Below, piece after piece: positions 12,601 to 39,939 of a stretch of DNA of 45,255 bases. Origin of the DNA: an uncultured Oscillospiraceae bacterium. GTDB taxonomy: Bacteria > Bacillota > Clostridia > Oscillospirales > Oscillospiraceae. Location of the stretch: positions 1 through 45,255 of the forward strand of contig CAYROZ010000001.1 in assembly GCA_964426125.1 (NCBI GenBank), written 5' to 3'. How positions within the stretch are numbered: position 1 is the stretch's first letter; each line of letters opens with the position of its first letter. Below the pieces are notes generated by a model. That model was not told where the DNA came from. It saw only the letters and a list, made by a program, of their open reading frames with translations, and did no database searches. A program made the position numbers and the translations under genes.

Positions 12601-12691
12601 GGAGATGTATCGAAGTGGTCGTAACGAGGCTGACTCGAAATCAGTTGACGAGTAACATCGTCCGGGGGTTCGAATCCCTCCATCTCCGCCA
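12601..12691 (+). tRNA. tRNA-Ser (anticodon CGA), class II with long variable arm, CCA encoded
   Basis: Acceptor GGAGATG pairs with CATCTCC. Anticodon stem GCTGA/TCAGT with loop CTCGAAA (CGA). Variable arm GACGA-GTAACA-TCGTC. T-arm GGGGG-TTCGAAT-CCCTC. Discriminator G followed by CCA. Confidence 0.93.
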
Positions 12692-15375: not shown

Positions 15376-15514
15376 GCGGTCCCCTCCTTTCCCGGCTGCG
15401 GGCAGCGCCGTGCGCCCCGCGCCATACCCCACATATATACTACTACGGTTTTTTCGAAAAAAACTACACCCGAAATCGAAACTTTGAAGGAGATATTATC
15501 CCCCCGGCGGGGAA

Positions 15515-20024: not shown

Positions 20025-20054
20025 ATGCATGAACTCCTTTCGCCGCACAGGCAG

Positions 20055-20072
20055 CGTGATTTTCTTCACAAT
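20055..20072 (-). promoter_or_regulatory. Candidate Rex/CRP-FNR-type operator in the reductase operon leader
   Basis: Minus strand ATTGTGAAGAAAATCACG. The left half matches the Rex half-site TTGTGAA 7/7, and the right half ATCACGC matches TTCACAA 4/7. The site also reads TGTGA-N6-TCACG. It lies just downstream of the predicted -10. Confidence 0.35.
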
Positions 20073-20083
20073 GTCCTGAGCTT

Positions 20084-20112
20084 ACTATACCACGAGTGCG
20101 CCGGATTGAAAA
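20084..20112 (-). promoter_or_regulatory. Promoter of the reductase operon
   Basis: Minus strand TTTTCA (20112..20107), 17-nt spacer, TGgTATAGT extended -10 (-10 at 20089..20084). Confidence 0.55.
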
Positions 20113-20158
20113 TACCCCACCATTAAGTAACCTTCCTACATGGAAGAAACAAGGAGGA

Positions 20159-20782
20159 ATGTTAGCTTGTCAAAGTTTCGACCAGAGTGATAGAATGAAA
20201 ATGATCACAATGGAGATGGACGATAAAATGGACTTTAAAAATCAGGAAGTGGTTTTCAGCGATGACACGCGCGCCGAAAAGGAGCGAAAGCTGCACTCGC
20301 TGATGTCCACGCAGGAGGAGCGCGAGCGTCTGCTCGAGGTCACGCCGCCGCTGGAGCCGGACGAGCCGAACGTATACGATGACCCCTATTCCCATATGAT
20401 GCGGCTGATCTTCAACCGCTGGAAGCCGTTTTTGCTGCGCGCGATCTATGTGGACGAGGGGACATATTTCTCCAAATTCCTCAAGCAGCTTCCCATCACG
20501 CAGAAGGTGCTCAGCCAGAATTTGAAGGATATGCAAAACGACGGCCTCATCTACCGCAACGTGCTGCCGGAGGTGCCGCCGCGCGTGGAATACTGCCTGA
20601 CGGATTCCGGCCGCGCCATGATCGGACTGCTCGATCTGGTGTATGACTGGGGTTGGGTGGATATGCGGCGCAAGGGACTGCCGGTCGATCCCATGGGCGA
20701 GATCTGGCATGGCTACCGCGAGCGGGATGAGGCGCTTTTGAGCCATCCGCCGCGCAGCGCCCGGCAGAACGAAAGAGGCTGA
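20159..20782 (+). CDS. HxlR-family winged-helix transcriptional regulator with N-terminal extension
   Basis: C-terminal HxlR core: NRWKPFLLRAIYVDEGTYFSKFLKQLPITQKVLSQNLKDMQNDGLIYRNVLPEVPPRVEYCLTDSGRAM. Start is uncertain among ATG 20159 (SD abuts the codon), 20195 and 20228. A possible promoter TTGTCA-18-TGaTAGAAT at 20167..20196 would favour 20228. Confidence 0.8.
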   Translation: MLACQSFDQSDRMKMITMEMDDKMDFKNQEVVFSDDTRAEKERKLHSLMSTQEERERLLEVTPPLEPDEPNVYDDPYSHMMRLIFNRWKPFLLRAIYVDEGTYFSKFLKQLPITQKVLSQNLKDMQNDGLIYRNVLPEVPPRVEYCLTDSGRAMIGLLDLVYDWGWVDMRRKGLPVDPMGEIWHGYRERDEALLSHPPRSARQNERG

Positions 20783-20948: not shown

Positions 20949-22550
20949 ATGAAAAAGTATCTTGCGCTCCTGCTGGCTCTGGCCATGATGCTGGCGCTGG
21001 CCGCGTGCGGCTCGGCTCCGGCGGAGGAAGCGACCACGGCCGAGGCTCCCGCTGCGGCGGCTCCCGAGGCGGCGGCTCCTGCGGCTCCGGGCGAAAAGAG
21101 CACCGAAGTGACCATCGGCGTGGTGGACACCCACTACCCCGCTTATCCCTCCTCCGCGGCGGACGACGACTTCGTCTGCTCCGGCATGGTGTACGATAAG
21201 CTGTTCGAGGTCGACGACTTCACCGGCGAGTATGTCTCCTACATCCTCGACTCCTATGAGTGGCTGGACGACGTGACCTTCACCATGACGGTCAAGGACG
21301 GCATTTACTTCTCCGACGGCAAGCAGATGACCGCCGAGGACGTGCTGTTCTCTCTGCAGAACTACATTCTTCAGGGCGAGACCACCGATAAATATCAGTA
21401 CTATTCCCAGATCGACTTTGGTGCCTGCACCATCTCCGATGACGGCATGACCGTCACCATCGTTTACAAGGCGCCCTATGGCCCCGCGCTGCGCACGCTC
21501 AACTGCCCCGTGATGCAGAAGACCTTCACCGAAGCGCACGCTTCGTCCGAGATGATCTGGTTCACGGCCCCCGTCGGCTCCGGCCCCTATGCTATCACCG
21601 ACATGGTGCAGGACTCCTATGTTGAGTTCACGCTGCGCGAGGATTACTGGGATACCTCCCGTACCTTCGACGCCACCAAGATCACGCTGAAGTTCTACTC
21701 CGATGAAAGCGCCATGTACATGGACTATCAGGCGGGCAACCTGGACGTTATCTACAACATCGGCGCCACCACCGTTGAGTCCATCGAGGCCGCCGGCGGC
21801 GCGCAGGGCACCGTCCAGTACTATCCCGACAACGACGTTCTCTATCTGCACCTCAACGAGGATAACCCCGTTCTGGCCGATCCTCTGGTCCGCGAGGCCA
21901 TTGCCCACGCGCTGGATATGGAATACATCACCGACGTGGCCTACGGCGCGCTCGGCGAACTGGCCACCAGCCACTACCCCACCACCTTCGATGCTTATGT
22001 GGCCCACGAAGGCTATGAGTACGATCCCGAGCTGGCCGTGGAGCTGCTCGAGCAGGCCGGCTACAAGTCCGGCGACATCGTGATCGACTGGGTCTCCCCC
22101 GACCTGCCCCCCGAACCCCAGATCGGCGAGGCCGTGCAGGCTCTGCTCAGCCAGGTCGGCATCACGGTGAACGTGCAGACCTATGAGCTGGCCACCGCGC
22201 TCGGCTACCACCTCGGCGGCGAGACCGACATCTCCTGCAGCCATACCATGGGCGGCAACCCCACCAAGGAGCCGGACAACGCTCTGTCCTCCTTCTATGA
22301 TAAGGGCGCGTTCGCTTCCTTCTCCATCTCCGACCCGCAGTACAACGAGTACTACTACAACGGCCTTTACAGCGTGGACGAGGAGACCCGCTGGGAGAAC
22401 TACCGCAATCTCGACCAGTGGCTGTATGACAACTACATGGTGCTGCCCGTGTGCGAGGTCATGAAGGCTGTGGCCTACAACGACCGCATCGCGAGCTTTG
22501 ACCAGTCCGCGCTGATGCGCAGCTGCCTCGGCTCTCTGAAGCTGGCCTGA
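20949..22550 (+). CDS. ABC transporter substrate-binding lipoprotein, family 5 (peptide/nickel/opine type)
   Basis: Signal peptide with lipobox LALAAC and an Ala/Pro/Glu linker. SBP_bac_5-like body (FTLREDYWD, DVIYNIG, ELLEQAGY). First gene of the permease/ATPase operon. Confidence 0.9.
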   Translation: MKKYLALLLALAMMLALAACGSAPAEEATTAEAPAAAAPEAAAPAAPGEKSTEVTIGVVDTHYPAYPSSAADDDFVCSGMVYDKLFEVDDFTGEYVSYILDSYEWLDDVTFTMTVKDGIYFSDGKQMTAEDVLFSLQNYILQGETTDKYQYYSQIDFGACTISDDGMTVTIVYKAPYGPALRTLNCPVMQKTFTEAHASSEMIWFTAPVGSGPYAITDMVQDSYVEFTLREDYWDTSRTFDATKITLKFYSDESAMYMDYQAGNLDVIYNIGATTVESIEAAGGAQGTVQYYPDNDVLYLHLNEDNPVLADPLVREAIAHALDMEYITDVAYGALGELATSHYPTTFDAYVAHEGYEYDPELAVELLEQAGYKSGDIVIDWVSPDLPPEPQIGEAVQALLSQVGITVNVQTYELATALGYHLGGETDISCSHTMGGNPTKEPDNALSSFYDKGAFASFSISDPQYNEYYYNGLYSVDEETRWENYRNLDQWLYDNYMVLPVCEVMKAVAYNDRIASFDQSALMRSCLGSLKLA

Positions 22551-22581
22551 GCGAACGGCGGCAAAATTTGAGTTTTCCAAA

Positions 22582-22608
22582 GCCAGCCCCCACAAGCTGG
22601 GGGCTGGC
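22582..22608 (+). other. Intra-operon GC-rich stem-loop after the SBP gene
   Basis: GCCAGCCCCC-ACAAGCT-GGGGGCTGGC (10-bp perfect stem) between the SBP stop and the permease SD. No strong T-run follows. This is typical of partial terminators or mRNA stabilisers that raise SBP stoichiometry. Confidence 0.5.
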
Positions 22609-22631
22609 GACTTATTAGGAGGTGCTCATCC

Positions 22632-23606
22632 TTGTTTCGATTCATATTGAAGCGCTTGCTCATCATCATTCCCACGCTGCTGGGTGTGATGCTGGTCATC
22701 TTCACCATCAATTACTTCATCCCCGGCGATCCGGCCATTCTGGCGCTGGGCTCGAACTACACGGAGGAGGCCTATGAAGCCAAGCGGGCGGAAATGGGTC
22801 TGGACAAGTCCTTCATCGTGCGGTATGTGGATTATGTGGTCGATATTGCAACAAAGCTCGATCTCGGCACCTCCTACGATACGTCCCGTCCGGTCAAGGA
22901 CGCCATCTTCAACTCCCGCTTGGGCGTCACGCTGAAGGTGGGCTTGCTCTCGTGCATCATAACCGTTGTGTTGGGGGTGGGCATCGGAATACTGTCGGCG
23001 GTGAAAAAATACACCGCCATCGACTACACGGCCACCACCCTCGCGGTATTTTTCTCGGCGGCTCCGGCCTTCTGGATCGCGCTGATGAGTATGCTCATTT
23101 TCAGCCTCAAGCTCGGGTGGCTGCCGGCCTCGTGGGATAACGGCAGCTTAAAGGGTCTGATTTTGCCGGTGTTCTGCATGGCGCTCAGCCCGATCTCGCT
23201 CGTTGTGCGTATGACGCGCACGAGTATGCTGGATGTGATCAACCAGGACTACATCCGCACGGCCCGTGCCAAGGGCGTGAAGGAGCGCGTCGTTATCTTC
23301 AGCCACGCGCTGCGCAACGCCATGATCCCCGTGCTCACGGTCATTGGCGCGCAGCTTACCATGGTCATCGGCGGCTCGTTCATCATCGAGTCCGTGTTTT
23401 CCATTCCCGGCATCGGCATGCTGCTGCTGTCCGCCATCAACACGCGCGACTTCCCCATGATCCAGGGCACCGTGCTTGTGCTGTCGTTCTTCGTTTGCAT
23501 GGTGAACCTGCTGGTGGATGTGGCCTATGCCTATGCCGACCCGCGAATCAAGGCCCAGTATGAGGGCCAGAACAAGCGCCGCAAGCTGAAAGAAAAGGAG
23601 GCCTGA
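22632..23606 (+). CDS. ABC transporter permease (DppB/OppB type)
   Basis: TTG start 9 nt after AGGAGG. N-terminus FRFILKRLLIIIPTLLGV. EAA-loop region YIRTARAKGVKERVVIFSHALRNA. Confidence 0.92.
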   Translation: MFRFILKRLLIIIPTLLGVMLVIFTINYFIPGDPAILALGSNYTEEAYEAKRAEMGLDKSFIVRYVDYVVDIATKLDLGTSYDTSRPVKDAIFNSRLGVTLKVGLLSCIITVVLGVGIGILSAVKKYTAIDYTATTLAVFFSAAPAFWIALMSMLIFSLKLGWLPASWDNGSLKGLILPVFCMALSPISLVVRMTRTSMLDVINQDYIRTARAKGVKERVVIFSHALRNAMIPVLTVIGAQLTMVIGGSFIIESVFSIPGIGMLLLSAINTRDFPMIQGTVLVLSFFVCMVNLLVDVAYAYADPRIKAQYEGQNKRRKLKEKEA

Positions 23607-23608
23607 GC

Positions 23609-24490
23609 ATGAATAAAAAAGAAACTTCGGGCCCGCGTCTGGACGAGCGCCGCCACAGCCAGCTCGGCGACACCTGGCGGCAGTTCTGCCGCAACAAGCT
23701 GGCCGTGTTTGGCCTTTGCCTGGCGGTGTTTCTGGTGCTGGTCGCCATCTTTGCCAACGTTCTCGCCCCCTATGACCCCACGGCCATTTCCCGCGACCGT
23801 ATGGCCATGCCCTCGGCGGAGCACTGGTGCGGCACGGATAACTTCGGCCGCGACCTGTTCAGCCGCATCATCTACGGCGCGCGCGTGTCGCTGCTGATCT
23901 CGCTTTTGAGTCTGATCATCGGCATGATCATCAGCATTGTGCTCGGCGCCACGGCGGGCTACTTCGGCGGGCTGTATGAGTCCATCGTTATGCGCGTCTG
24001 CGACATCCTCATGTGTATTCCCGGTATGCTGCTGGCGGTGTGCATCTCGGCGCTGCTGGGCGTTGGCATATTGAACACAGCCATCGCCATCGCCATCGGA
24101 GGCATGGCCCCCGGTGTGCGCATGATCCGCGCCACGGTCATGCAGATCCGCTCCCAGGAATATGTGGAGGCCGCCCGCGCCACGGGCTCGGGCCACTTCA
24201 AGATCATCTTCCACGAGATCATGCCGAACGTGCTGTCGCCTCTGATCGTGGACGCCACGATGCGCATCGGCGGCAACATTCTGCAGATCTCGGGTCTGAG
24301 CTTCATCGGCCTCGGCGTGCAGCCGCCCACATCCGAGTGGGGCTCCATCATGAGCGCCGGACAGGAGTTCATCACCAGCTTCTGGCCCATGATCACCTTC
24401 CCCGGCATCGCCATCATGGTGACGGTGTTCGCCTTCAACGTCATGGGCGACGGTCTGCGCGATGCGCTCGACCCGCGCTTGAAGCAGTAA
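23609..24490 (+). CDS. ABC transporter permease (DppC/OppC type)
   Basis: Starts 2 nt after the previous stop. Motifs HWCGTDNFGRDLFSRIIYGARVSL and YVEAARATGSGHFKIIFHEIMPNV. Confidence 0.92.
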   Translation: MNKKETSGPRLDERRHSQLGDTWRQFCRNKLAVFGLCLAVFLVLVAIFANVLAPYDPTAISRDRMAMPSAEHWCGTDNFGRDLFSRIIYGARVSLLISLLSLIIGMIISIVLGATAGYFGGLYESIVMRVCDILMCIPGMLLAVCISALLGVGILNTAIAIAIGGMAPGVRMIRATVMQIRSQEYVEAARATGSGHFKIIFHEIMPNVLSPLIVDATMRIGGNILQISGLSFIGLGVQPPTSEWGSIMSAGQEFITSFWPMITFPGIAIMVTVFAFNVMGDGLRDALDPRLKQ

Positions 24491-24502
24491 GGAGGGGCAG
24501 AC

Positions 24503-25516
24503 ATGAGTCATTTGCTTGAGATCAAAGACCTCGAGGTCGCGTTCCACACCATGGATTCGCACATCCACGCCGTAAACGGCGTGTCGCTTACGCTCGATGC
24601 CGGCGAAACGCTTGGCCTTGTGGGCGAGACCGGCGCGGGCAAAACCACCACGGCGCTGTCCGTGCTCAACCTCATCCAGTCGCCCCCCGGCCGCATCGAA
24701 AAGGGCGAGATATGGTTTGAAGGCAGCGATATTCTGAAAATGACGGACGAGCAGCTGCATGACATCCGCGGCTCGGCCATCAGCATGATATTCCAGGATC
24801 CCATGACCGCGCTCAACCCCATCTTCCGCGTGGAGGACCAGATCGCGGAGGTCGTGAAGATCCACGAAAAGGTATCCAAGCACGAGGCCGTGGCCAAGGC
24901 GCGGGAGATGCTGGAGTTCGTGGGCATCCCCGCCGATCGCGGCGTGGAGTATCCCCACCAGTTCTCCGGCGGCATGAAGCAGCGCGTGGTCATTGCCATG
25001 GCGCTGGCCTGCTCGCCGAAGCTGCTCATTGCCGACGAGCCCACCACCGCGCTGGATGTGACCATTCAGGCGCAGGTGCTCGACATGATGACGGAGCTGA
25101 AAACCAAGCTCAACTCCGCCATGATCCTCATCACGCACGATCTGGGCGTGGTGGCGGAAACCTGCGACAAGGTGGCCATCATGTACGCCGGCGAGATCGT
25201 GGAGCTGGGCACGCTGGAGGATATCTTCGAGCGCACGGCCCACCCCTACACCGAAGGGCTTTTCAACTCGCTGCCCTCGCTCGATTCCGAGGTGGAGCGG
25301 CTCAAGCCCATCGTGGGTCTGATGCCGGACCCGGCGAATCTGCCGGCTGGCTGCAAGTTCCATCCCCGCTGCCCCTATGCCGATGAGCGCTGTGCCCAAA
25401 CCGAGCCGACGCTGCGGGAAAAGGCCCCCGGCCATATGTGCCGCTGCCACCGCATGGAGGAGCTTTCGCTTCGCAGCGTGGACGAAGATGAAGGAAAGGC
25501 GGGTGAGACCCTGTGA
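24503..25516 (+). CDS. ABC transporter ATP-binding protein (OppD/DppD type)
   Basis: Walker [10 protein letters not shown], signature FSGGMKQR, Walker [13 protein letters not shown], and the oligopeptide-type C-terminal Cys motif (CKFHPRCPY). Confidence 0.94.
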
Positions 25517-26478
25517 GTGAAGAGCTGATCCGGGTAGAGCACCTGAAAAAATACTTTGACACGCCGCGCGGCAAGCTGCACGCGGTGGACGATGTCGGCT
25601 TCACGCTCGACGCCGGCAAAACGCTGGGCGTTGTGGGCGAATCCGGCTGCGGCAAGTCAACGCTGGGCCGCACCGTGCTGGGTCTGCTGCCCGCCACGGA
25701 CGGCAAGATATTCTTTGAAGGCCGCGACATCACGCAGGCCAAGGGCCGCGAGCGCCGCGAGCTGCAAAAGGATATGCAGATCATCTTCCAGGACCCCTTT
25801 TCCAGTCTCAACCCCCGCTACACGGTCTTTGAGCTGATCGCCAATCCTCTGCGCTCGTTCCATCTGTGCAGCAGCAAGCAGGAGATCGAGGACAAGGTGT
25901 TCAGTTTGATGGACACCGTGGGTCTGGCCCGCCGCTTTGCCTACTCCTACCCCCACGAGCTCGACGGCGGCCGCCGCCAGCGCATCGGCATCGCCCGCGC
26001 GCTGAGTGTGGACCCGAAGTTCATCGTTTGCGACGAGCCGGTGAGCGCGCTGGATGTTTCCATTCAGGCGCAGGTTCTGAACCTTTTGCAGGACCTGCAG
26101 GCGGAAAAGCACCTCAGCTACATTTTCGTAACGCACGATATGTCCGTCGTCAAGCACATCTCGGACGATATCCTTGTGATGTACGTCGGCTCCATGATCG
26201 AAAAGTGCCCCTCGCGCCGGCTGTTCGAAATGCCGCTGCACCCCTACACCAAGGGCCTTTTGTCCGCCATTCCGGTGCCGTCCATCCGGCGGGAGAAAAA
26301 GCGCATCATCATGCAGGGCGAGCTGACCAGCCCCGTCAATCCCAAGCCCGGCTGCCGCTTTGCCGCGCGCTGCCCCTATGCCAAGGAGCGCTGCCAGCAG
26401 GAGATGCCGACCTACGAGGAGGTCCAGCCCGATCATTTCGTGGCCTGCCACTACGTTCGGGAGATCAACGACCTGTGA
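25513..26478 (+). CDS. ABC transporter ATP-binding protein (OppF/DppF type)
   Basis: GTG start overlaps the previous stop (GTGA). Walker A GESGCGKST, signature LDGGRRQR, Walker B FIVCDEPVSALD, and C-terminal CRFAARCPY. Confidence 0.94.
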   Translation: MSEELIRVEHLKKYFDTPRGKLHAVDDVGFTLDAGKTLGVVGESGCGKSTLGRTVLGLLPATDGKIFFEGRDITQAKGRERRELQKDMQIIFQDPFSSLNPRYTVFELIANPLRSFHLCSSKQEIEDKVFSLMDTVGLARRFAYSYPHELDGGRRQRIGIARALSVDPKFIVCDEPVSALDVSIQAQVLNLLQDLQAEKHLSYIFVTHDMSVVKHISDDILVMYVGSMIEKCPSRRLFEMPLHPYTKGLLSAIPVPSIRREKKRIIMQGELTSPVNPKPGCRFAARCPYAKERCQQEMPTYEEVQPDHFVACHYVREINDL

Positions 26479-27347
26479 AACGAATTTTTCAATGCAGCGC
26501 CGCCGTTTTGGCGGCGCTGTGGCTGTTGCTGCTTTCCGCTGCGGCGGCCGAGCCGGTCATCACGGTGCTGGAAACGGCGCCGCAAACCATCCTGAAGGCC
26601 GCGCCGCTGCGCGAGGAATGCGAGCTGGGCCAAACGGCGGCGGATGCGCTGCGCGCCGTGTCGGGCGCGGATGCGGCGCTGGTGCCCGGCGGCGAGCTGG
26701 CCAACGATCTGAACGCCGGCGCGGTCACGGCGGCGGATATCGCGCGCGTGTTTGCCCAGGACCGGCCTCTGGCCGTGGCGGCGCTGACGGCGGCAGAGCT
26801 GTGGGCGCTGCTGGAATGGTCGGTCCATGCCATCGTGGTCGATCCCGACACGGAGACGGTGGTGGCGGAGGCGTCGGATTTTGATGGGTTTTGCCATGTT
26901 TCGGGCCTGAAGATGGTATATGATGCTTCGGCCCCCGCGGGCGATCGCGTGCAGAGCGTCACGCTGGACGACGGGCGCAAGCTCGATAAAACCGACGGGA
27001 GCACCGTTTTGCGCGTGTGCGCGCCCGGGGCGCTGTTCGACGGGGCGTACGACTATCCGCTGCATCCCGCCGAGCCCATGGGCGACACGCTGTGCAGCGC
27101 GCTGGCGGCGTATGCAGCCGGGAAAACGGCGCTGCCGGAATCGGACGCGGCGCGCATCGTGGTGCTCGGGGCGCGGGAAAATGCGCTGGTGGGCGCGGTG
27201 CCGCGCGGGCTGCTGGTCGTGGGCTGCGTGGTGCTGATCGCGCTGCTGGTCGTGCCGGGGCAAAAGCTCGGGCGCTACCGGGATGAATTTGAAGTAAACG
27301 ACGAAAAATGGGCCAAAGGCTACCGCAGGCAGGGCCGGAAAAGATAA
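26475..27347 (+). CDS. Extracytoplasmic, membrane-anchored protein consisting only of a 5'-nucleotidase C-terminal (substrate-binding) domain
   Basis: GTG start overlaps the ATPase stop (GTGA). Signal peptide AAVLAALWLLLLSAAAA. 5_nucleotid_C-like blocks ECELGQTAADALR, DAALVPGGELANDL, AGAVTAADIARVF, SGLKMVYDASAPAGDRVQSVTLDDGRKLD. C-terminal TM followed by a basic tail. No metallophosphatase domain is present. Confidence 0.75.
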   Translation: MKRIFQCSAAVLAALWLLLLSAAAAEPVITVLETAPQTILKAAPLREECELGQTAADALRAVSGADAALVPGGELANDLNAGAVTAADIARVFAQDRPLAVAALTAAELWALLEWSVHAIVVDPDTETVVAEASDFDGFCHVSGLKMVYDASAPAGDRVQSVTLDDGRKLDKTDGSTVLRVCAPGALFDGAYDYPLHPAEPMGDTLCSALAAYAAGKTALPESDAARIVVLGARENALVGAVPRGLLVVGCVVLIALLVVPGQKLGRYRDEFEVNDEKWAKGYRRQGRKR

Positions 27348-27399: not shown

Positions 27400-28899
27400 T
27401 TATTCGTTTCTAAGGGCCTCGGCAACGCTTTCACCCGCGAGGAAGCCGGAGGAGAGCGCCCAGGACATATCGTTGAGCACCTGGCGCTTCACGCCGCCCA
27501 GACTGATGTGGCGGCCGCCGGCGAAATCGCCCGTGACGTAAAGGCCCGGAACCAGACTGCCATCGGGCCGATAGGCCTGCATATCGGCGTTCACGGCCAC
27601 GCCGCCGAACGCGCCGTCCGTGTTCAGACGGGCGGCCAGCGCGAAATACGGGCCCTGCGCCAGCGGCAGCATGGTTTTCGGGTCCTTGAAATAGTCCCAG
27701 TCCTTCCCTTCGGCGCAGGAGATGTTGTAGGTTGAAACGGTGCGGGCCAGCGCGGCGGGATCAACGCCCATCTGCCCGGCGAGCGCATCGAGACTGTCCG
27801 CCATGAAAACGCCCTTGGTGCCCTTGGCCATCGCATCGCGGAACCAGCCGTGGATGACCGGCGTGTCCGGCAGCGGCGGCTTGGGGAAGGGGCCGGGCTC
27901 GTTGGTGCCGGATTTCGATTCGGCGACCATCCGCTCGAGAATGTTCTGGCTGAACAGGAAGAAGCTGCGGCCCTTGGGCAGCTTCAGCAGCACATGGCCG
28001 GTGTCGAACGGATCCATGCGCGGCACCAGCGGCTCCGCGGCGAAGCGGCGGCCCGTCAGATCGACCAGAATGCAGTAGTCGCTGAGCGAAAGCGGATAGA
28101 ACACGGAGGTCTCCCCCGTGGCGCACATGGGGCCCATGATGCGCAGACAGAAGTTGTCCCAGTCCACAAAAGCGCCGGCCTTTTCCGCGATGGGGATGCC
28201 GTCGCCGGTGTAGGCGGGGTTCTGGTGGGCGTTGGGCATGATGTCCAGATCGCGGAACGCGGGCATCACCTTGTCCATCACGGCCTCGTTTCGTATCCAG
28301 GTGCTGCACGAGAGGATGCACACGCGGCAGCCGAAGCGCACGCGGCCCTCCGGCGTTTCGGCCCAGATGGCCGTGATGCGGCCGTTTTCCACCTCGGCAT
28401 CCACGGCGCGGTGCTCCGTGAGCACCTCAATGCCGCGGGCCTCGCATTGGCGCAGCATGGTTGCCACGATCAAGCGGCCCGAGCCGTTGTGGAAGCCGTC
28501 CTGCTGCGGGCCGGGCTGGCCGTGGACGGGGATATCGAAGATGTAGGGGCGCGGCTCGTATTTGGCCAGAATTTCGGGCAGCTCAAACCGGCTGTACCAG
28601 TCGAAGAAGCGGCCCGTGCTCAAAACGGCGCGGCGCACCAGCTTGGCGTCGAGCTTCCAGAAGGTCAGATCCATGCCCTGGCGGATGAAGTCGTTGGACT
28701 GGTCGCGGATGCCGCGGTCGGCCTGCCACTGGCTGCCGAAGGTGCGCATGGTGGAGGCGAACAGCATCCCGCCGCCGGGCTTTTTGGCCTTTTCCAGCAC
28801 GATCACGCGCTTGCCGGAAAGCTCCGCCGCGCGCACTGCGGCCACCAGACCGCTGCCGCCGCCGCCGACGACCAGAATATCACAGTTGCGTTCAGTCAT
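27400..28899 (-). CDS. FAD-dependent oxidoreductase, FAD_binding_2 family (paralog A)
   Basis: DILVVGGGGSGLVAAVRAAELSGKRVIVLEK at the N-terminus and GLYVTGDFAGG near the C-terminus. No signal peptide. ATG overlaps the stop of paralog B (ATGA). SD AAGGAG. Confidence 0.88.
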   Translation of the reverse strand: MTERNCDILVVGGGGSGLVAAVRAAELSGKRVIVLEKAKKPGGGMLFASTMRTFGSQWQADRGIRDQSNDFIRQGMDLTFWKLDAKLVRRAVLSTGRFFDWYSRFELPEILAKYEPRPYIFDIPVHGQPGPQQDGFHNGSGRLIVATMLRQCEARGIEVLTEHRAVDAEVENGRITAIWAETPEGRVRFGCRVCILSCSTWIRNEAVMDKVMPAFRDLDIMPNAHQNPAYTGDGIPIAEKAGAFVDWDNFCLRIMGPMCATGETSVFYPLSLSDYCILVDLTGRRFAAEPLVPRMDPFDTGHVLLKLPKGRSFFLFSQNILERMVAESKSGTNEPGPFPKPPLPDTPVIHGWFRDAMAKGTKGVFMADSLDALAGQMGVDPAALARTVSTYNISCAEGKDWDYFKDPKTMLPLAQGPYFALAARLNTDGAFGGVAVNADMQAYRPDGSLVPGLYVTGDFAGGRHISLGGVKRQVLNDMSWALSSGFLAGESVAEALRNE

Positions 28900-30380
28900 G
28901 AGGTAAGCTCCTTTTCTATGTGGTCTGCCGCGTGTTCGGCGGCCAGTTTGCCGGAGGTGCAGGCCCAGCCCAGCGTTACGCCCTCATAGGACACATAGGC
29001 GTTGTTCACAAGACCGCCGCTGGCGTCGCATCCGGCGGCGTACAGGCCGGGGATGGGGCGGCCGTCGGGCCGCAGCGCCTGCATGGCGGTGTTGATGCGC
29101 AGTCCGCCCAGCGAGCAAAGCTGGTTGGCGCGCCCTTCGATCAGATAATAGGGCCCCGCGCCGTAGGCGTGCAGATAGGCGGGGTCCTTGCCGTACATAT
29201 CGTCGCGTCCGGCGGCGCACAGCGCGTTATAGTCCGCCACGGTTTGCGACAGCGCGGCGGCGTCCATGCCGGCCGACCCGGCCAGCGCGGAAAGCGAATC
29301 GCCCCTGTGCACCACGCCGCAGGTGAGCCCTTCGCGCAGCTGCGCGGGAAAATCGGTCCAAGGCGTGTCCGGGTCGAGCCCGCGCAGATCGGTGTCCAGT
29401 CCCAGGGCGCGCGCGCCTTTTTCCGTGAGTGCGTCGGCCATGGTCTGGTCGAGCAGGATATAATACTCGCTGCCCTGGCGGAAAACGGCGTTGCCGGTGT
29501 AGGAGATGTCCTCCCACACGCCCTCGTTTACAAAGCGCTGGCCGAGGCGGTTGAGCCAAAGCACGCCAGGAAAGCCCGTCAGCCGGCTCAGCTCGTTGCC
29601 ATGGCGGCCGATGGAGGCGCGGCTGAGCTTGTCGCAGGGAACGTCGCAGCCGTGCAGCTCGATGGCGTCCGGATTTTCCGTGCCGCAGCCGATGTCCATG
29701 GCCATGCGTATGCCGTCGCCGGTTTGAAAGCCGGTGTTGATGGCGTTCACCTTCACGCCGCGCGTGGCGCGCAGCACCATTTCCTCGTTTGCGCCGTAGC
29801 CGCCCGTGCAGGCGATCACGGCCCGGCCGTAAACCGCAAAGCGGCCCTGCTCGTCCCGCGCCCACACACCGGCGACGCGGCCGGAGTCCACGATCAGCTC
29901 CTCTGCCGCCGTGCGCAGAAGGACCTGCCCGCCGCCTTCTTCCACGCGCCGGATCAGACGGCGCATCTCCCCGGCTTTGTAGGTGTCCCAGATGAAATAG
30001 GTCTGGAAGGGACTGTGGGCATGCTTTGGCTGCACGGTGCCGACATAATCGATCCTGCAGCCGAGCGCCTGCAGCCAGTCCACGGTCTCGCCGCTGTGGC
30101 GCAGATATTCGTGGATGAGGGCGAAGTTGGCCAGATAGTTGGTCTGCTCCATCCAGTCGTGCAGCATCTGCGCGATGGTGAAGGCGCCTTTGGGGCTGTT
30201 TCTCTGGTCGCGGGCTCCCACGGCGCCCAGACCGCGCGCCATCGCCGCCGAACCGCCTACAGAAGGCGCCTTTTCCAGCAGGATGACCCGCTTGCCAAGC
30301 TGGGCGGCCCGCATGGCGGCGCAGAATCCGGCCCCGCCGCCGCCGAGAACGATGATGTCGCCGTGAATGCTTCTTTCCAT
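28896..30380 (-). CDS. FAD-dependent oxidoreductase, FAD_binding_2 family (paralog B)
   Basis: DIIVLGGGGAGFCAAMRAAQLGKRVILLEK, CTGGYGAN, and GLYAAGCDASGG. No signal peptide. Confidence 0.88.
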   Translation of the reverse strand: MERSIHGDIIVLGGGGAGFCAAMRAAQLGKRVILLEKAPSVGGSAAMARGLGAVGARDQRNSPKGAFTIAQMLHDWMEQTNYLANFALIHEYLRHSGETVDWLQALGCRIDYVGTVQPKHAHSPFQTYFIWDTYKAGEMRRLIRRVEEGGGQVLLRTAAEELIVDSGRVAGVWARDEQGRFAVYGRAVIACTGGYGANEEMVLRATRGVKVNAINTGFQTGDGIRMAMDIGCGTENPDAIELHGCDVPCDKLSRASIGRHGNELSRLTGFPGVLWLNRLGQRFVNEGVWEDISYTGNAVFRQGSEYYILLDQTMADALTEKGARALGLDTDLRGLDPDTPWTDFPAQLREGLTCGVVHRGDSLSALAGSAGMDAAALSQTVADYNALCAAGRDDMYGKDPAYLHAYGAGPYYLIEGRANQLCSLGGLRINTAMQALRPDGRPIPGLYAAGCDASGGLVNNAYVSYEGVTLGWACTSGKLAAEHAADHIEKELTS

Positions 30381-30426
30381 TGACGCGTGGTTCCTTTTTC
30401 GTTAAAATGTTTTATATATTTTGCGC

Positions 30427-30460
30427 TTGTGCGCACCCATACTAATTTATATAATTATAT
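30427..30460 (+). promoter_or_regulatory. Candidate promoter and operator of the NTF2-like operon, within a divergent AT-rich control region
   Basis: TTGTGC (30427..30432), 17-nt spacer, TATAAT (30450..30455). The palindrome GTGCGCAC (30429..30436) overlaps the -35. The perfect 12-bp palindrome ATATAATTATAT (30449..30460) overlaps the -10. Confidence 0.5.
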
Positions 30461-30502
30461 TATATTCACATTCCGGACAAACGCAAGAAGGAGATCAAAA
30501 TT

Positions 30503-31243
30503 ATGCGCGATATCGGCAACAGTGCAGCGCTGGCGGATCGGTGGCATGACCGGCGCGCTGTGATGAATCTGGCGGGCAAATACGTCATGAGTCTGCTGCT
30601 CAAGCGCGAGGGCAGCTTGTTTGATGATTTCTGGAGTGCGCGGGAGGACGTGTGCCTGCGCTTTAACGACGGCAGCTACGTCGGAGCGGCGGCCGTGCGC
30701 GGCTATTATGCGGCGCAGTGCGAAAACACGGCGCTGGTGTCGCGGTTTTTGAAGGAGCGCTTCCCCGCGCAGCTCGGCTCGATGAGCGAGGAGGAGCTTT
30801 TCGGCGTGGGGCAGTTCCACGGCCTTCCCATCACGACCCCGGTGGTGGAGGTGGCCGGAAACGGCGAAACGGCCCGCGGCCTGTGGCACGTTCACGGAAC
30901 GGACAATACGCTTGGGCCCTGGGGGCCGCTTTCGTGGTGGAAGCTCGGCTTTCTGGCCATCGATTTTCGCCGGGAGGGAGGCCGGTGGCGGCTGTGGCAC
31001 GTGTTCCACGCGGAGGATGTGACCGCGCCCATGGGCGAAAACTGGCTGCGGCCCGCGGAGCGAAAGGAGCTGCCGGAATACGCTGCGCTCAAGGCGCTGA
31101 AAAAGCCTGCATACACCGTGGTGCGGGACAATTACCGGCCCTATTCGCCCACGCGGCCGCTTGCGCCGCCGCCGGAGATCCCGGAGCCCTATGAAAGCTT
31201 CGAACAGATCGTCGGCTATGGAGAGGAGGCGAGCGTGCGATGA
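30503..31243 (+). CDS. NTF2/SnoaL-like fold protein, long form (paralog 1)
   Basis: SD AGAAGGAGA. SnoaL_4-like pattern (AVMNLAGKYV..., GETARGLWHVHG, LAIDFRREGGRWRLWHVF) plus an approximately 80-aa Pro-rich C-terminal extension containing PEPYESF. Confidence 0.7.
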   Translation: MRDIGNSAALADRWHDRRAVMNLAGKYVMSLLLKREGSLFDDFWSAREDVCLRFNDGSYVGAAAVRGYYAAQCENTALVSRFLKERFPAQLGSMSEEELFGVGQFHGLPITTPVVEVAGNGETARGLWHVHGTDNTLGPWGPLSWWKLGFLAIDFRREGGRWRLWHVFHAEDVTAPMGENWLRPAERKELPEYAALKALKKPAYTVVRDNYRPYSPTRPLAPPPEIPEPYESFEQIVGYGEEASVR

Positions 31244-32028
31244 GCTTTGCGTACCGCGAATTTTCCGATGACGAGCTGATCGATCGCGTTTGGGACCAGG
31301 AGAACATACGGGACACGATGGGCCGCTTTGCCTATTACGAGGCGGCAAACCGCCGCCGCGAGGCGCTGGAGCGCTTTTGGGTGCAGGAGTCTGAAAACCG
31401 GGCCACGGCGTCGTTTGGGCGCAACTGGGGCTTTCTGCGCGGCATGGAGGAGATAGAGGCGTATTACGTCGGGCGCTGCCGCTTCGGCGGCGTGGGAACG
31501 GCGCTGATGCACCCGCTTTCCACCAAGCTTTTGTATCTGGCCGAGGACGGTTCCACGGCGCAGGGAATGTGGATGGGCATCGGCTATGAAATGGCCCCGG
31601 ACAGCCGGGGCGAGCCGGATGCCAAGTGGGTCAGCGAGCGCGTGGCGGTGGATTTCATCCGCGAGGGCGGCACGTGGCGCATCTGGCATATGTTCATCGG
31701 CACGAACTACGTTTTGTCCGCCGGGGAAAACTACCGCGAGCAGCCCATTGCCGTGCGCACCGTGACGCGCGGGGAGGGCGGGCCGCACTGGTATGTGGTG
31801 GGCCGGGGCCGCGAGAGGACGGCGGGCCCTGTGGCGCAGTTTGATCAGATACCGGACTGGCCGGAGCGGGAGGCGTTTTTGAACGGGCGCGAGCCGGAGG
31901 AGATATACACCGCGCTGTATAACGACCCGCTGCATTTTCCGCCGCTGCCGCAGCCGTACCGCACGTTTGCCGAAACCGTGAGCTATGGGCCCGCGGGCTT
32001 TTCGGCAAGTCTTGAAGGGAGGGTTTGA
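31240..32028 (+). CDS. NTF2/SnoaL-like fold protein, long form (paralog 2)
   Basis: ATG overlaps the previous stop (ATGA). SD GGAGAGGAGG. Motifs DGSTAQGMWMGIG and VAVDFIREGGTWRIWHMF. C-terminal tail contains PQPYRTF. Confidence 0.7.
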   Translation: MSFAYREFSDDELIDRVWDQENIRDTMGRFAYYEAANRRREALERFWVQESENRATASFGRNWGFLRGMEEIEAYYVGRCRFGGVGTALMHPLSTKLLYLAEDGSTAQGMWMGIGYEMAPDSRGEPDAKWVSERVAVDFIREGGTWRIWHMFIGTNYVLSAGENYREQPIAVRTVTRGEGGPHWYVVGRGRERTAGPVAQFDQIPDWPEREAFLNGREPEEIYTALYNDPLHFPPLPQPYRTFAETVSYGPAGFSASLEGRV

Positions 32029-32033
32029 GCCGG

Positions 32034-32810
32034 ATGGAGCAAAGCACACACGAGAAGATCCGCGCGGCAGGAGCCTGCCTGGAGGTGGAAAATCTCCATG
32101 CCCGCCACTGCTATATGCACTGCGCGGGGCGCAACGTGGAGGAAGTGGACCGCTGCTGGCTGAAAAGCGACGAGGTATCCTGGGGCCATGGCTTCGGCAA
32201 ATGGGTCGGCTGGCAGGGCGTGAAATTCGGCTGGGGCTCCAGTTTGGAGCGGCAGGGGCTCGGCGCGTATCTGGAGCTCACGCAAACCTGGCCGCAGGTG
32301 ACGGGGCTGGACCCGCGCCCGCTGTATGAGTCCGCCATGCACACGCTGGCCACGGACATCATCGAGGTGGCCGCCGACGGCCAAACGGCGCGCGCCTTTT
32401 TCTACACGCCGGGGGCCGTGACCTCCACGCTCAATGCCGATGGCCGGCGCGAGGGCGTTTGGATGTGGGAGCGCTACGGCGTGGAATACGCGCGGGACGC
32501 GGACGGGCAGTGGAAATTCCGCACCATTCAGGTCTGTCCCGATCTGGTGGCCCCGCTTGACTGCGTCAATCCGGCGCGGGAAAGCATGGCACGATTGCAG
32601 TCGCCGCAGCCGCCGCATGGCTTTCCGGAGGGACAGGTGCTCGGCTGCGCCGGGCCGATCGCGCCCATTGTGGACGAGCCGGAGCCGGTCCATGCCGACT
32701 GGTCGCTCGTTCAGCCGGTGCAAAATCCCGTTCCCTGGCCGGAGCCGTATGAAACACTCGATCCGGCGCGTTCGTACCGCTATCGCGTGCAGGATCAACC
32801 GGCGGAATAG
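32034..32810 (+). CDS. NTF2/SnoaL-like fold protein, long form (paralog 3, most divergent)
   Basis: ATG 32034 lies 10 nt after GGGAGGG. An in-frame TTG at 32025 would overlap the previous stop. Motifs DGQTARAFFYTPG and YARDADGQWKFRTIQV. C-terminal tail contains PEPYETL. Confidence 0.65.
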   Translation: MEQSTHEKIRAAGACLEVENLHARHCYMHCAGRNVEEVDRCWLKSDEVSWGHGFGKWVGWQGVKFGWGSSLERQGLGAYLELTQTWPQVTGLDPRPLYESAMHTLATDIIEVAADGQTARAFFYTPGAVTSTLNADGRREGVWMWERYGVEYARDADGQWKFRTIQVCPDLVAPLDCVNPARESMARLQSPQPPHGFPEGQVLGCAGPIAPIVDEPEPVHADWSLVQPVQNPVPWPEPYETLDPARSYRYRVQDQPAE

Positions 32811-37538: not shown

Positions 37539-38606
37539 TTACAGGATGATGAGCTGTTTGGGGGCTTTGGTGATGTCGATGCAGCCGTCGCCGTGCAGGA
37601 AAAGCACGTCCTCGATGCGAACACCGAAGCGGCCGGGGATGTAGATGCCGGGCTCGGCGGAGATGACGGCGCGGTCGGGCATGGGCTGGTCGTTGCGGGG
37701 GGCGGCGTTCGGCGCTTCGTGGATCTCAAGGCCGAGACTGTGGCCAAAGCTGTGGCCGAAATATTCGCCGTAGCCGGCGCTCTCGATCACATTGCGGGCG
37801 GCGGCGTCGATCTCGCGGCCGGTCACGCCGGGGCGCGCGGCCTCAATGCCGGCCAGCTGCGCGGCCAGAACGGTTTCGTACACCGTGCGCATCTCGTCCG
37901 TCACATGGCCCACGGCCACGGTGCGGGTCATATCCGAGCAGTAGCCGTTATACATGGTGCCGAAGTCCATGGTGATGAAATCGCCGGACTGGATGATCTT
38001 GTCGCCGGGCACGCCGTGGGGCATGCTGGTTTTCGAGCCGGTGACCACGATGGGGTCGAAGGAATTGGCCTCGCCGCCGAATTTATAAAGCCGGTACACA
38101 AGCTCCGCGGCCAGCTCCTTTTCCGTCATGCCCGGACGGATCACGCCCAGCAGCTCGTCCAGCGCCTTTTCCGCGACGCGCTGCGCGGCGATGAGGCAGT
38201 CAAGCTCCTCGTCCGACTTCGACGGCCGCAGCCCCGCGATCACCTGCTCGCCGCTTTGCAGCGTTACGCCGAGGTCTTCCTCCATCCGCTGCCACTCGGC
38301 GCGGCTCATGCGGTCGGCCTCCGCGCCCACGGCGGCAAAGGCGTTCTGGTCGAAGATGTGCCCGGCGAGGGTTTTGAACGGCGTGCCGGACGAGGCGGAC
38401 AGGATCTCCATATCCGTCACGGTCTCGCGCGCGGCTTCCTCGTAGCGGCTGTCCGTGATCAGCCACGCCTTGTCGCGGCCGATGATGGCGGCGCCGTCCG
38501 TGATGAAAAAGCCGGAGGCGTAGCGGATGGTGATGGGGTCGGTGAGCAGCAGCGCGTCCAGCGCGCCGAGATGCTGCTGAATTTTTTTCACGTTTGACAT
38601 AGACAT
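37539..38606 (-). CDS. M24B Xaa-Pro aminopeptidase
   Basis: Start at ATG 38606 (SD GGAGTG, 10-nt spacing). Creatinase-like N-domain. Metal ligand blocks FITMDFGTMYNGYCSDMTRT, HSFGHSLGLEIHE, EPGIYIPGRFGVRIED. Confidence 0.9.
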   Translation of the reverse strand: MSMSNVKKIQQHLGALDALLLTDPITIRYASGFFITDGAAIIGRDKAWLITDSRYEEAARETVTDMEILSASSGTPFKTLAGHIFDQNAFAAVGAEADRMSRAEWQRMEEDLGVTLQSGEQVIAGLRPSKSDEELDCLIAAQRVAEKALDELLGVIRPGMTEKELAAELVYRLYKFGGEANSFDPIVVTGSKTSMPHGVPGDKIIQSGDFITMDFGTMYNGYCSDMTRTVAVGHVTDEMRTVYETVLAAQLAGIEAARPGVTGREIDAAARNVIESAGYGEYFGHSFGHSLGLEIHEAPNAAPRNDQPMPDRAVISAEPGIYIPGRFGVRIEDVLFLHGDGCIDITKAPKQLIIL

Positions 38607-38613
38607 TTGAAAA

Positions 38614-39939
38614 TCACTCCACAATATTGATATCGATCTCGGTCCAGGGACCGGCATAAGAAACACCCTCAAAAACGGCGTCCTCGCCGTTCATCGTGAT
38701 GCGCACGCCGCGCTCGAGCCCGAGGCCCAGCACGGTGGCGGCCAGACTTTTGGCCGCGGCCTCGCGCTCGTCCGGCTGAAGCGAGGCGAAGAAGCTTTCG
38801 GCCACATCCACCACGCGGATGCGTCCGACCACGGAGCTGGAAAGAATGGTGCCGCTGCCGAAAAACAGCTTGGGAAGCCCCGGCTCGTCCGCGTCGGCCA
38901 GCGCCGCGAGCAGCGCGTCCGTTTCGTCCTGTTCAAAGGAGCTGCTGTCAAGCAAAATGGGCATGGCGGCAAACGAATCGAGCCCCGGCAGCGCCAGATA
39001 CAGCGCCGCGCCCAGCTCGCCCTTGGCGGTGGCCGGCGGGCCCACGGCGGACTTCAAAAAGCCGAGCGGCTCGGCCAGCGAACGGTAGACATAGCTGTCC
39101 ACGGCCTCGCCCTGGCACAAAAGCTGCACGCTTTCCACATCCGCCAGCGCCGTGAGCGAGTTGACGATCGACCATACGGCCAGCCGCTCGCCCAGCGCGG
39201 TTTCCGGCTTGTTTTCCACAAACGCGGCGCTGAGATCCACGGTGCATACGCCGCCGTCCGTCCGGCAGGACAAAAGCTCCGTGCCCTCCGGGATGGCCGA
39301 GCGCAGCGCCGGATCGTTCGGCCCGCGCAAAAGCTCCTCCATCACATAGCGCTCCAGCGCGCTGTCGTCGTCAAGGGAGAGGCTGTGGTATTCGCTTTCA
39401 AGCCACTGGCCGTCGCTGCTCGCGAAATACAGGCGCAGCCGCCGCGTGTAGGGGTCGGAGTCGGTGTCCTGCAGCAGCGCGTCCTCCGCGTCGAGCGCAT
39501 GAAACAGCGTCTCGCCGCCAACCTCGATGGAAACGGCGTCCACCTCGTCGAGCTGGCACAGCGTCAAAACCGCGGCGAATACCGCGGCGGTCTGGTCCAT
39601 GGCGGGCACGGTCAGAAACGCATCCGAAAGGGTCAGCGTGACCAGACCGGACTCGCCCGTCCACGACAGGACCTCCACGCCGTCCGGCAGGGCGCAGCGC
39701 AGCCCATCGGCTCTTGTGCGGCGCTGAAACAGGGCCAGCACGTCCTCGACCTTGGCCCGGCTGCCGCCGGACAGAGACAGCGTTTCCGTCTGCAAAAGCT
39801 CGCCGGGCTGCGCGCCCTCGTGCACGCGCCAGATCTGCACGCTGTCCGTTCCGGCGGCGCTCTGCCCGGCGCGCACGCAGCCGAAAAACAGCGTGCACAG
39901 CAGCACGGCTGCCAGCAAAACAGTCACAGTCCGCTTCAT
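38614..39939 (-). CDS. Lipoprotein with GerM-like domains
   Basis: ATG overlaps the kinase stop (ATGA). Lipobox LFFGC. Two repeated segments resemble GerM domains (LTLSDAF..., TVDLSAAF...). Confidence 0.65.
   Translation of the reverse strand: MKRTVTVLLAAVLLCTLFFGCVRAGQSAAGTDSVQIWRVHEGAQPGELLQTETLSLSGGSRAKVEDVLALFQRRTRADGLRCALPDGVEVLSWTGESGLVTLTLSDAFLTVPAMDQTAAVFAAVLTLCQLDEVDAVSIEVGGETLFHALDAEDALLQDTDSDPYTRRLRLYFASSDGQWLESEYHSLSLDDDSALERYVMEELLRGPNDPALRSAIPEGTELLSCRTDGGVCTVDLSAAFVENKPETALGERLAVWSIVNSLTALADVESVQLLCQGEAVDSYVYRSLAEPLGFLKSAVGPPATAKGELGAALYLALPGLDSFAAMPILLDSSSFEQDETDALLAALADADEPGLPKLFFGSGTILSSSVVGRIRVVDVAESFFASLQPDEREAAAKSLAATVLGLGLERGVRITMNGEDAVFEGVSYAGPWTEIDINIVE

Follow-up and report, generated by a model that had tools for sequence, protein, structure and literature searches.

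Why do two flavoenzyme genes and three genes for NTF2-fold proteins stand back to back in the genome of an uncultured Oscillospiraceae bacterium, and what might their products do together? The genes lie on contig CAYROZ010000001.1 (assembly GCA_964426125.1), of which we analyzed a stretch of 45,255 nt with a GC content of 62.6%, hereafter the window. On the minus strand are FadA (28896-30380; 494 amino acids, aa) and FadB (27400-28899; 499 aa), both cytoplasmic flavoenzymes of the FAD_binding_2 family. On the plus strand are three NTF2/SnoaL_4 paralogs, N1 (30503-31243; 246 aa), N2 (31240-32028; 262 aa) and N3 (32034-32810 from an ATG, 258 aa, or 32025-32810 from a TTG, 261 aa). An earlier description made from the DNA letters (the sequence-only reading) had treated these five genes as one module, in which flavoenzymes that reduce or form carbon-carbon double bonds (C=C) work with elimination or isomerization enzymes of the NTF2 type. 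The pairing of the two chemistries gains support from an enrichment of reductase genes beside the NTF2 genes, but the unit had been drawn wrongly. The five-gene block is kept only in close relatives, namely L011 and, with a regulator inserted, L093, whereas the three NTF2 genes are kept together broadly. They also look less like three separate enzymes than like subunits of one trimer of the LdpA type with a single catalytic subunit.

The conservation of the NTF2 triad is seen in a wide sample. Relatives of N2 are few: a word-indexed search gave 74 clusters, and an exhaustive profile search of 1.84 billion representatives yielded 1,369 with E <= 1e-3. A profile scan of 185,579 species genomes returned 147 matches; 80 loci from about 43 genomes were kept, and N1, N2, N3, FadA, FadB and one query of the old yellow enzyme (OYE) type were mapped onto all of them. 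We found 82 complete triads in 72 loci; in each of them N1 is followed by N2 and N2 by N3, all with the same orientation. The genes overlap or abut. Genes outside a triad are rare, and nearly all incomplete sets are at contig ends. The three paralogs share 21-29% pairwise identity, and the pairwise identities of N1, N2 and N3 correlate across triads (r = 0.89-0.93), which suggests that the triads are inherited, duplicated and diverge as blocks. The carriers are nearly all metagenome-assembled genomes (MAGs) of uncultured Oscillospiraceae or Clostridiales from human (Hadza), ruminant and chicken guts, among them rumen and omasum MAGs (RUG12379, roe deer omasum, red deer). Several loci per genome are common, up to seven or more. 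Neither the N2 relatives nor any of the five window proteins carries a functional name in public sources, and the literature search returned nothing relevant on an NTF2 triad or heterotrimer, on SnoaL proteins in Oscillospiraceae, on NTF2 proteins with ene-reductases, or on LdpA homologs in anaerobes.

Some features of the distribution are worth recording beside these counts. Paired triads, in tandem or nearby on one contig, occur in L020, L022, L024, L059, L069, L073, L085 and L090. Far more divergent three-gene NTF2 sets adjoin some triads (L077:4709-6794 and L086:3-1715), and the triad family is probably wider than our search detected. Eleven loci (L014, L023, L036, L041, L067, L070, L073, L082, L087, L088 and L089) come from one "cleanbin" MAG series labelled Flexilinea, Barnesiella intestinihominis, Prevotella sp. 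CAG:279 and Bacteroidaceae; the loci themselves are Oscillospiraceae-like, and the labels or the binning look unreliable.

Which known proteins do the triad members resemble? Searched against the PDB with hmmsearch, the N2 profile matched LdpA (8abv, E = 4.5e-8) and so did the N3 profile (E = 6e-5); no other PDB family came below E = 0.1 for either. With hhalign all three paralogs matched LdpA at 96-97% probability. The AlphaFold2 models of N2 and N3 are confident (predicted local distance difference test scores of 85.8 and 85.1) and show a cone-shaped alpha+beta barrel. In Foldseek searches with both models, ranks 1-7 were all LdpA (E 2e-8 to 4e-10), followed by LinA and then by BaiE, the latter at ranks 16-25 (E about 4e-6 to 1e-4). 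LdpA and its homolog PcfL, from Novosphingobium and Sphingobium (PDB 8abt-8abw), are thus the sole solved family found by sequence profiles and also the top fold match for N2 and N3. A bacterial chalcone isomerase was considered and dropped, since only LdpA was matched by sequence among PDB families.

LdpA, also called LsdE, is a cofactorless NTF2 lyase that dehydroxylates its substrate at the benzylic position to a quinone methide, from which formaldehyde is expelled and a stilbene is formed; it is a homotrimer stabilized by an extended C-terminal arm that lies on the neighboring monomer, and its catalytic residues are Tyr35, Asp40, Tyr74, His97, Glu143, Tyr147 and His183 (PMC9942872). PcfL catalyzes an analogous reaction on beta-5 dimers (PMC12997858). 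The reaction characteristic of these lyases is the deformylation of a 4-hydroxyphenyl-propanediol dimer, which yields a stilbene. N1, N2 and N3 all have the unusual LdpA length of about 250 aa, and a C-terminal PxPYxTF..YG motif is strongly conserved in all three, in the region of the inter-subunit arm. LinA, the gamma-hexachlorocyclohexane dehydrochlorinase and second-best fold match, is likewise a trimeric NTF2 elimination enzyme; unlike the triad proteins, it has about 150 aa, is homomeric, has no C-terminal arm and acts on a xenobiotic, and the identity is 14-18%.

Residue conservation was assessed in separate alignments of each paralog over the 82 triads, combined with hhalign, a joint alignment with LdpA being too gappy. 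The three paralogs have three different invariant sets. N3 keeps the equivalents of LdpA His97 (H106), Glu143 (E149) and Tyr147 (Y151) in 81 of the 82 triads, the latter two inside an invariant W-E-R-Y-G motif; in the numbering of the 261-aa form, its invariant residues are H28, Y30, H32, H55, H106, E149, R150, Y151 and D173. N2 keeps Tyr74 (Y76, 78 of 82) and His97 (H91, 71 of 82) and has hydrophobic residues in place of Glu143 and Tyr147. N1 keeps only Tyr or Phe at the positions of Tyr35 and Tyr74 and has essentially no acid-base residues. The Motif II acid Glu143, which the authors of the LdpA study call exclusive to LdpA (PMC9942872), and the oxyanion-hole Tyr147 are thus present in N3 and absent from N1 and N2. 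From these alignments N3 is likely the catalytic subunit, and N1 and N2 appear to be degenerate ones.

N3 also has an invariant His one residue before the position of LdpA Asp40. Its four invariant His (H28, H32, H55 and H106), together with several invariant acidic residues, could form a metal site rather than an acid-base network alone.

That N1 and N2 have lost most catalytic residues would also fit a quite improbable alternative, in which the whole triad is a non-catalytic complex that binds or carries hydrophobic substrates, or acts as a scaffold, and passes these substrates to the reductases or regulates them. Many NTF2-fold proteins are binders, and many triads have no adjoining enzyme. 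However, the invariant polar set of N3 (four His, several Glu and Asp, and Tyr) occupies LdpA active-site positions despite a mean identity of about 45%, which is typical of catalysis rather than of hydrophobic binding. There is also a small chance that the triad isomerizes its substrate (by a double-bond shift, tautomerization or racemization) and hands the ene-reductases a reducible isomer. Some isomerases have the NTF2 fold, and the Foldseek matches include putative ketosteroid isomerases; the conserved His/Glu/Tyr set suits proton shuttling equally well, and a step that sets the place of a double bond would agree with the association with C=C reductases. Yet LdpA, LinA and BaiE, the closest proteins by sequence and fold, all catalyze eliminations, and N3 retains the LdpA-specific Glu143, which protonates the leaving hydroxyl. 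An elimination catalyzed by N3 is the reading that we prefer.

How would one catalytic and two degenerate paralogs work together? Per-paralog hidden Markov models identified eight independent 50%-cluster representatives in which N1 is fused to N2 (P0195, P0196, P0197, P0198, P0199, P0203, P0205 and P0237), and their differing linkers argue against a frameshift artefact; P0304 fuses an N3-like to an N1-like domain. Obligatory co-occurrence, translational coupling, trimeric relatives and these fusions argue together for a heterotrimer with one catalytic subunit, and from this genomic evidence we infer that N1, N2 and N3 associate physically. LdpA is the homotrimeric product of one gene; the triad has three diverged paralogs in a fixed order, one of them with the catalytic set. 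If the heteromer is real, no NTF2-fold enzyme composed of three dedicated paralogs, only one of them catalytic, would have been described before, as far as the literature we found goes, and it would change how genomes are read for the large and mostly unannotated SnoaL/NTF2 families.

Two kinds of variant proteins were seen in the same family. Long forms of N3, of about 510-540 aa (L020:10712-12232, L059:9466-11073 and L072:8040-9650; also in L022, L024 and L048), have a normal N3 domain that a Gly/Pro-rich linker joins to some 200 aa of C-terminal domain without a Pfam match. P0301, P0306, P0312, P0337 and P0254 are single-domain relatives with signal peptides or lipoprotein boxes that mix N2-type (TASFGQNQG) and N3-type (HxxYH, WE.YG) motifs; these may represent an exported, homomeric, ancestral-like form of the family.

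Are the flavoenzymes then linked to the triad at all? Within 1.5 kb of triads there are 29 OYE-type genes (Oxidored_FMN + Pyr_redox_2) and seven FAD_binding_2 genes. Their combined density is 1.68 per 10 kb within 1.5 kb, versus 0.27 at 4-10 kb (binomial p = 1e-8), an enrichment of about six-fold. The partner can be exchanged. L011, whose N2 is 75% identical, has the layout of the window with two FAD_binding_2 genes, whereas in L012 and L074, with N2 about 70% identical, two OYE genes take their place, a replacement by non-homologous genes in which the count of reductases stays at two. In the search from the flavoenzyme side, triads adjoin relatives of FadA in L093 (66% identity) and L095 (47%). 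We consider it very improbable that the flavoenzyme pair and the triad are mere neighbors with no common pathway, an explanation suggested by the variable and often absent partner and by a FadA relative that has no triad (L094). The enrichment stands against it, as do the divergent promoter region common to both operons and the renewed co-location of the same components after rearrangement in L093. The reductases are, in our reading, functional partners of the triad. With the triad constant and the reductase family exchanged, these loci amount to a clean natural experiment in deducing function from context.

Other recurrent neighbors of triads are ATP-binding cassette (ABC) importers (SBP_bac_1/8 and Opp-type), Fer4-nitroreductases and MatE proteins, together with regulators of the LysR, PucR, AraC and HxlR types; the regulators and importers suit a catabolic setting. 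None of the recurrent neighbors is a short-chain dehydrogenase/reductase (SDR), coenzyme A (CoA) ligase, CoA transferase, glycoside hydrolase or esterase, which might have pointed to a substrate. Neighbor clusters 1 and (probably) 14 are antisense shadow open reading frames (ORFs) in high-GC DNA and were set aside. In one clade of OYE-linked triads, a 167-aa shikimate-kinase-like gene (SKI/AAA_18) is coupled directly 3' of N3 (L007:7538-8041, L008:2771-3274 and L016 at about 7286-7786).

What do the reductases resemble? FadB and FadA share 30% identity. The solved structures nearest FadA are flavocytochrome c3 fumarate reductase (E = 1e-37) and the urocanate reductase UrdA (E = 1e-26), with which it shares the fold of the FAD (flavin adenine dinucleotide) and clamp domains; unlike these, it has no cytochrome, no FMN_bind domain and no signal peptide. 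Compared with flavocytochrome c3, FadA keeps His365 but has Glu for Arg402, Leu for His504 and Ser for Arg544. The clamp domain of FadB cannot be aligned to that of flavocytochrome c3, His504 corresponds to Asp or Gly, and Arg544 is kept. The sequence-only reading had named orthology to an enzyme such as fumarate reductase, with matching active-site residues, among the findings that would speak against it; we looked for this, and neither protein has the matching set of catalytic residues. FadA and FadB as fumarate reductases were rejected, since FadA is without the proton donor Arg402, His504 and Arg544, and FadB has diverged even further.

Among NCBIfam families, the vinyl phenol reductase VprA (NF053717) gives the highest scores for FadA, FadB and a third FAD_binding_2 paralog in the window, with 263.8, 126.4 and 157.8 bits, respectively, all below the cutoff of 600, so that the resemblance is one at the level of the family only. 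Like VprA from lactobacilli (about 480-490 aa), FadA and FadB are cytoplasmic FAD_binding_2 proteins without a heme or FMN_bind domain. VprA reduces a C=C conjugated to a phenol; VprA, BaiCD and bilirubin reductase all reduce a C=C conjugated to a carbonyl or aromatic system. Some 15 clusters with at least 47% identity make up the clade of FadA, and none of them has more than a generic label. The OYE partners score best against BaiCD (382-451 bits, cutoff 825) and the bilirubin reductase BilR-long (334-403 bits, cutoff 750).

These scores raise the question of whether the module is a bai-like system for steroids or bile acids, with a BaiE-type dehydratase or ketosteroid isomerase acting on 3-oxo-steroids together with ring reductases of the BaiCD/BaiH/BaiJ type or dehydrogenases of the KstD type. 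In the bai core, the 7-alpha-dehydratase BaiE, which is a trimer of the NTF2 fold, works with the Fe-S flavoenzymes BaiCD/BaiH, which reduce a C=C, for a net reductive dehydroxylation, as we propose for the triad. BaiE is among the fold matches, BaiCD is the best-scoring model for the partner class that is most common (380-451 bits), 3-ketosteroid dehydrogenases, which are members of FAD_binding_2, are among the NCBIfam hits, and the carriers are gut bacteria. Nevertheless, we judge this explanation improbable. Sequence profiles detect LdpA and do not detect BaiE even at E <= 1. The triad proteins are not orthologs of BaiE: the positions of its catalytic Tyr and Asp are not conserved, and they have about 250 aa with a C-terminal arm, versus 164-168 aa in the BaiE PDB chains. 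Scores against BaiCD reach only about half of its curated cutoff. BaiA, BaiB and BaiF-type genes are not found nearby, and without recurrent CoA ligase, CoA transferase or SDR genes the locus is no copy of a bai operon, as the sequence-only reading had correctly stated. The bai core also has no counterpart to the three-paralog triad. Triads are abundant in rumen and omasum MAGs, and up to seven or more loci per genome argue for many substrates. A paper on gut steroid reductases describes OYE enzymes only, with no NTF2 partner. The more general idea of a cyclic or conjugated substrate holds, whereas bile acids and steroids are disfavored by the rumen and omasum carriers and by proteins that are nearer to LdpA than to BaiE.

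How far does the module extend? The sequence-only reading had ended it at the five genes, but the functional island reaches upstream to about 16.9 kb. A gene for a GltD-like NAD(P)H oxidoreductase (Fer4_20 + Pyr_redox_2; 16993-18870, minus strand) is preceded on the same strand by that of the third FAD_binding_2 paralog, a protein of 580 aa with an N-terminal 2x[4Fe-4S] ferredoxin domain (18327-20069); the GltD-like gene probably starts near 18.33 kb, because its ORF overlaps the upstream gene. The GltD-like protein is presumed to be the electron input to the Fe-S-containing FAD reductase. Divergent from the reductase gene, on the plus strand, is an HxlR/MarR-type transcription factor (20096-20782), the sole regulator inside the island. 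It is followed, also on the plus strand, by an Opp/Dpp-type ABC importer (20949-26478), comprising an SBP_bac_5 protein (20949-22550), two permeases (22632-23606 and 23609-24490) and two ATPases (24503-25516 and 25513-26478), and by an exported protein of 290 aa with a 5_nucleotid_C domain only (26475-27347), whose gene is translationally coupled to that of the last ATPase.

The evidence for treating these genes as one island comes from L093, where one arm reads OYE, GltD-like, Fer4-FAD_binding_2, N3, N2, N1 and PucR from left to right, all transcribed leftward, and the divergent arm reads FadA, FadB, SBP_bac_5, OppBCDF and 5_nucleotid_C. The ortholog of the Fe-S-containing FAD paralog (52% identity) is directly downstream of N3 in the same operon, the GltD-like gene shares 32% identity with that of the window, and the 5_nucleotid_C gene is again coupled to the last importer ATPase gene (L093:16740-17467). 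Opp-type cassettes also flank the triads in L009. The same parts are co-located in the window and in L093 despite rearrangement, which argues for one functional island of roughly 16 kb at 16.9-32.8 kb.

Taken together, these observations lead us to a proposal whose chances of being right or wrong we hold to be about equal: an elimination enzyme formed by N1, N2 and N3, with N3 as its catalytic subunit, would act together with flavoenzymes that reduce a C=C in an imported, probably plant-derived compound. The compound would enter through the ABC system. The triad proteins would form a hetero-oligomeric, cofactor-independent enzyme with a structure of the kind seen in LdpA, LinA and BaiE. Most likely one copy of each would join through the C-terminal arms into a 1:1:1 heterotrimer, in which the acid-base residues (His106, Glu149, Tyr151 and more of the invariant His) come from N3, while N1 and N2 complete the trimer and shape the binding sites. 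The complex would remove a hydroxyl, hydroxymethyl or other leaving group and, as in LdpA, leave a conjugated C=C, of the quinone-methide, stilbene, vinylphenol or enone type. FadA and FadB, or BaiCD-class OYE/Fe-S enzymes in other genomes, would then reduce the new C=C, making the elimination irreversible and the compound an electron sink. Electrons from NAD(P)H would enter the Fe-S-fused third paralog through the GltD-like protein. Where a triad has two reductases, the compound could be reduced twice in succession, or be activated by a dehydrogenation and then reduced, as in the bai pathway.

Several observations weigh against this proposal. The similarity to LdpA is remote, at about 20-25% identity. 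LdpA Asp40, the dyad partner of His97, and Tyr35 are not conserved in any paralog; the position of Asp40 is Ala, Cys, Gly or Leu throughout, so that the His97-Asp40 dyad (Motif I) is absent, and the chemistry may differ from that of LdpA. Flanks were adequate for 62 triads, and 28 of these are without a C=C reductase in the nearest 1.5 kb; the FadA relative in L094, at 48% identity, has no triad nearby. The BaiCD and VprA matches are far below the curated cutoffs. Opp and SBP_bac_1 importers are more typical of peptides or oligosaccharides than of free aromatics.

The argument is weakest where it concerns the substrate class. The nearest named relatives, LdpA and VprA, both have 4-hydroxyphenyl systems as substrates, and triads occur in rumen and omasum MAGs; bile acids are not known to occur in the rumen and omasum. 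Taken together, these points favor plant phenylpropanoids over bile acids and steroids. A narrower version, which we consider doubtful, is that the triads are a family of heterotrimeric NTF2 lyases, not recognized until now and present in many copies in fiber-associated Oscillospiraceae of gut and rumen, that, with the ene-reductases, cleave or dehydroxylate lignin-type phenylpropanoid dimers independently of O2, as an anaerobic counterpart of LdpA/PcfL. The substrates would then be lignans, neolignans, diferulates or beta-1/beta-5 fragments, and the stilbene or quinone methide would be reduced by VprA-like or BaiCD-like flavoenzymes rather than cleaved by a dioxygenase. The triad differs from LdpA in these respects, its partner being a reductase and not a stilbene dioxygenase, and its hosts being strict gut and rumen anaerobes and not aerobic sphingomonads.

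Elimination on an NTF2 fold followed by flavin reduction has a precedent in the bai pathway, and in fold and catalytic residues the triad is related to LdpA. New features are the arrangement of three paralogs, of which one is the likely catalytic subunit, the multiplication of this arrangement in uncultured Oscillospiraceae, and reductase families that can stand in for each other. In these bacteria, a dominant but poorly understood group in gut and rumen, the module points to dozens of catabolic loci that lack annotation. An elimination enzyme with interchangeable C=C reductases would be a testable O2-free route for removing hydroxyl or one-carbon groups reductively from dietary compounds, and the module may help bacteria to break down plant compounds without oxygen. 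Few candidate genes are available for the transformation of lignan- or lignin-derived dimers by gut and rumen anaerobes.

The gene models on which this argument depends agree with several lines of evidence. Two overlapping flavoenzyme genes whose products have no signal peptide, facing three coupled NTF2-fold genes across an AT-rich spacer, had been described in the sequence-only reading, and ORF coordinates, Pfam matches, N-termini and the GC content of the 122-bp spacer (30381-30502; 32.8%, versus 62.6% for the window) agree with it. ATGA overlaps occur at both the FadA/FadB and the N1/N2 junctions. N2 and N3 overlap by TTGA if N3 starts with TTG, or are separated by 5 nt if it starts with the ATG at 32034. 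This ATG has a GGGAGGG ribosome-binding site in front of it, was chosen by the gene callers and is most likely the start. All Pfam matches exceed their cutoffs: SnoaL_4 (PF13577) scores 31.5, 34.5 and 35.7 bits for N1, N2 and N3 (gathering threshold 24), and FAD_binding_2 (PF00890), matched at full length, scores 107, 180 and 147 bits for FadB, FadA and the third paralog (threshold 20.4). None of the five proteins has a hydrophobic N-terminus or signal peptide, and FadA and FadB open with a GxGxxG dinucleotide fold at the very N-terminus, which suggests that all five are cytoplasmic. The GC content at third codon positions, about 0.80-0.86, favors the five annotated frames over overlapping shadow ORFs, and independent metagenome contigs carry the same five genes with identical protein sequences.

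The divergent control region contains a promoter-like TTGACG-17-TAAAAT (30380-30408, plus strand) and an AAGGAG ribosome-binding site. A search with Rfam gave no riboswitch from which a ligand could be named. A palindrome, TGCGC-ttgt-GCGCA, lies at 30422-30435 between FadA and N1 and is a possible operator; no regulator gene adjoins it. Elsewhere in the window (12601-12688, 14818-15432 and 37539-41327) are a tRNA gene and genes for an ECF-type sigma factor (extracytoplasmic function), an M24 peptidase, a sporulation/germination protein with a Germane domain and a HAMP histidine kinase; these unrelated genes fit a spore-forming Firmicute.

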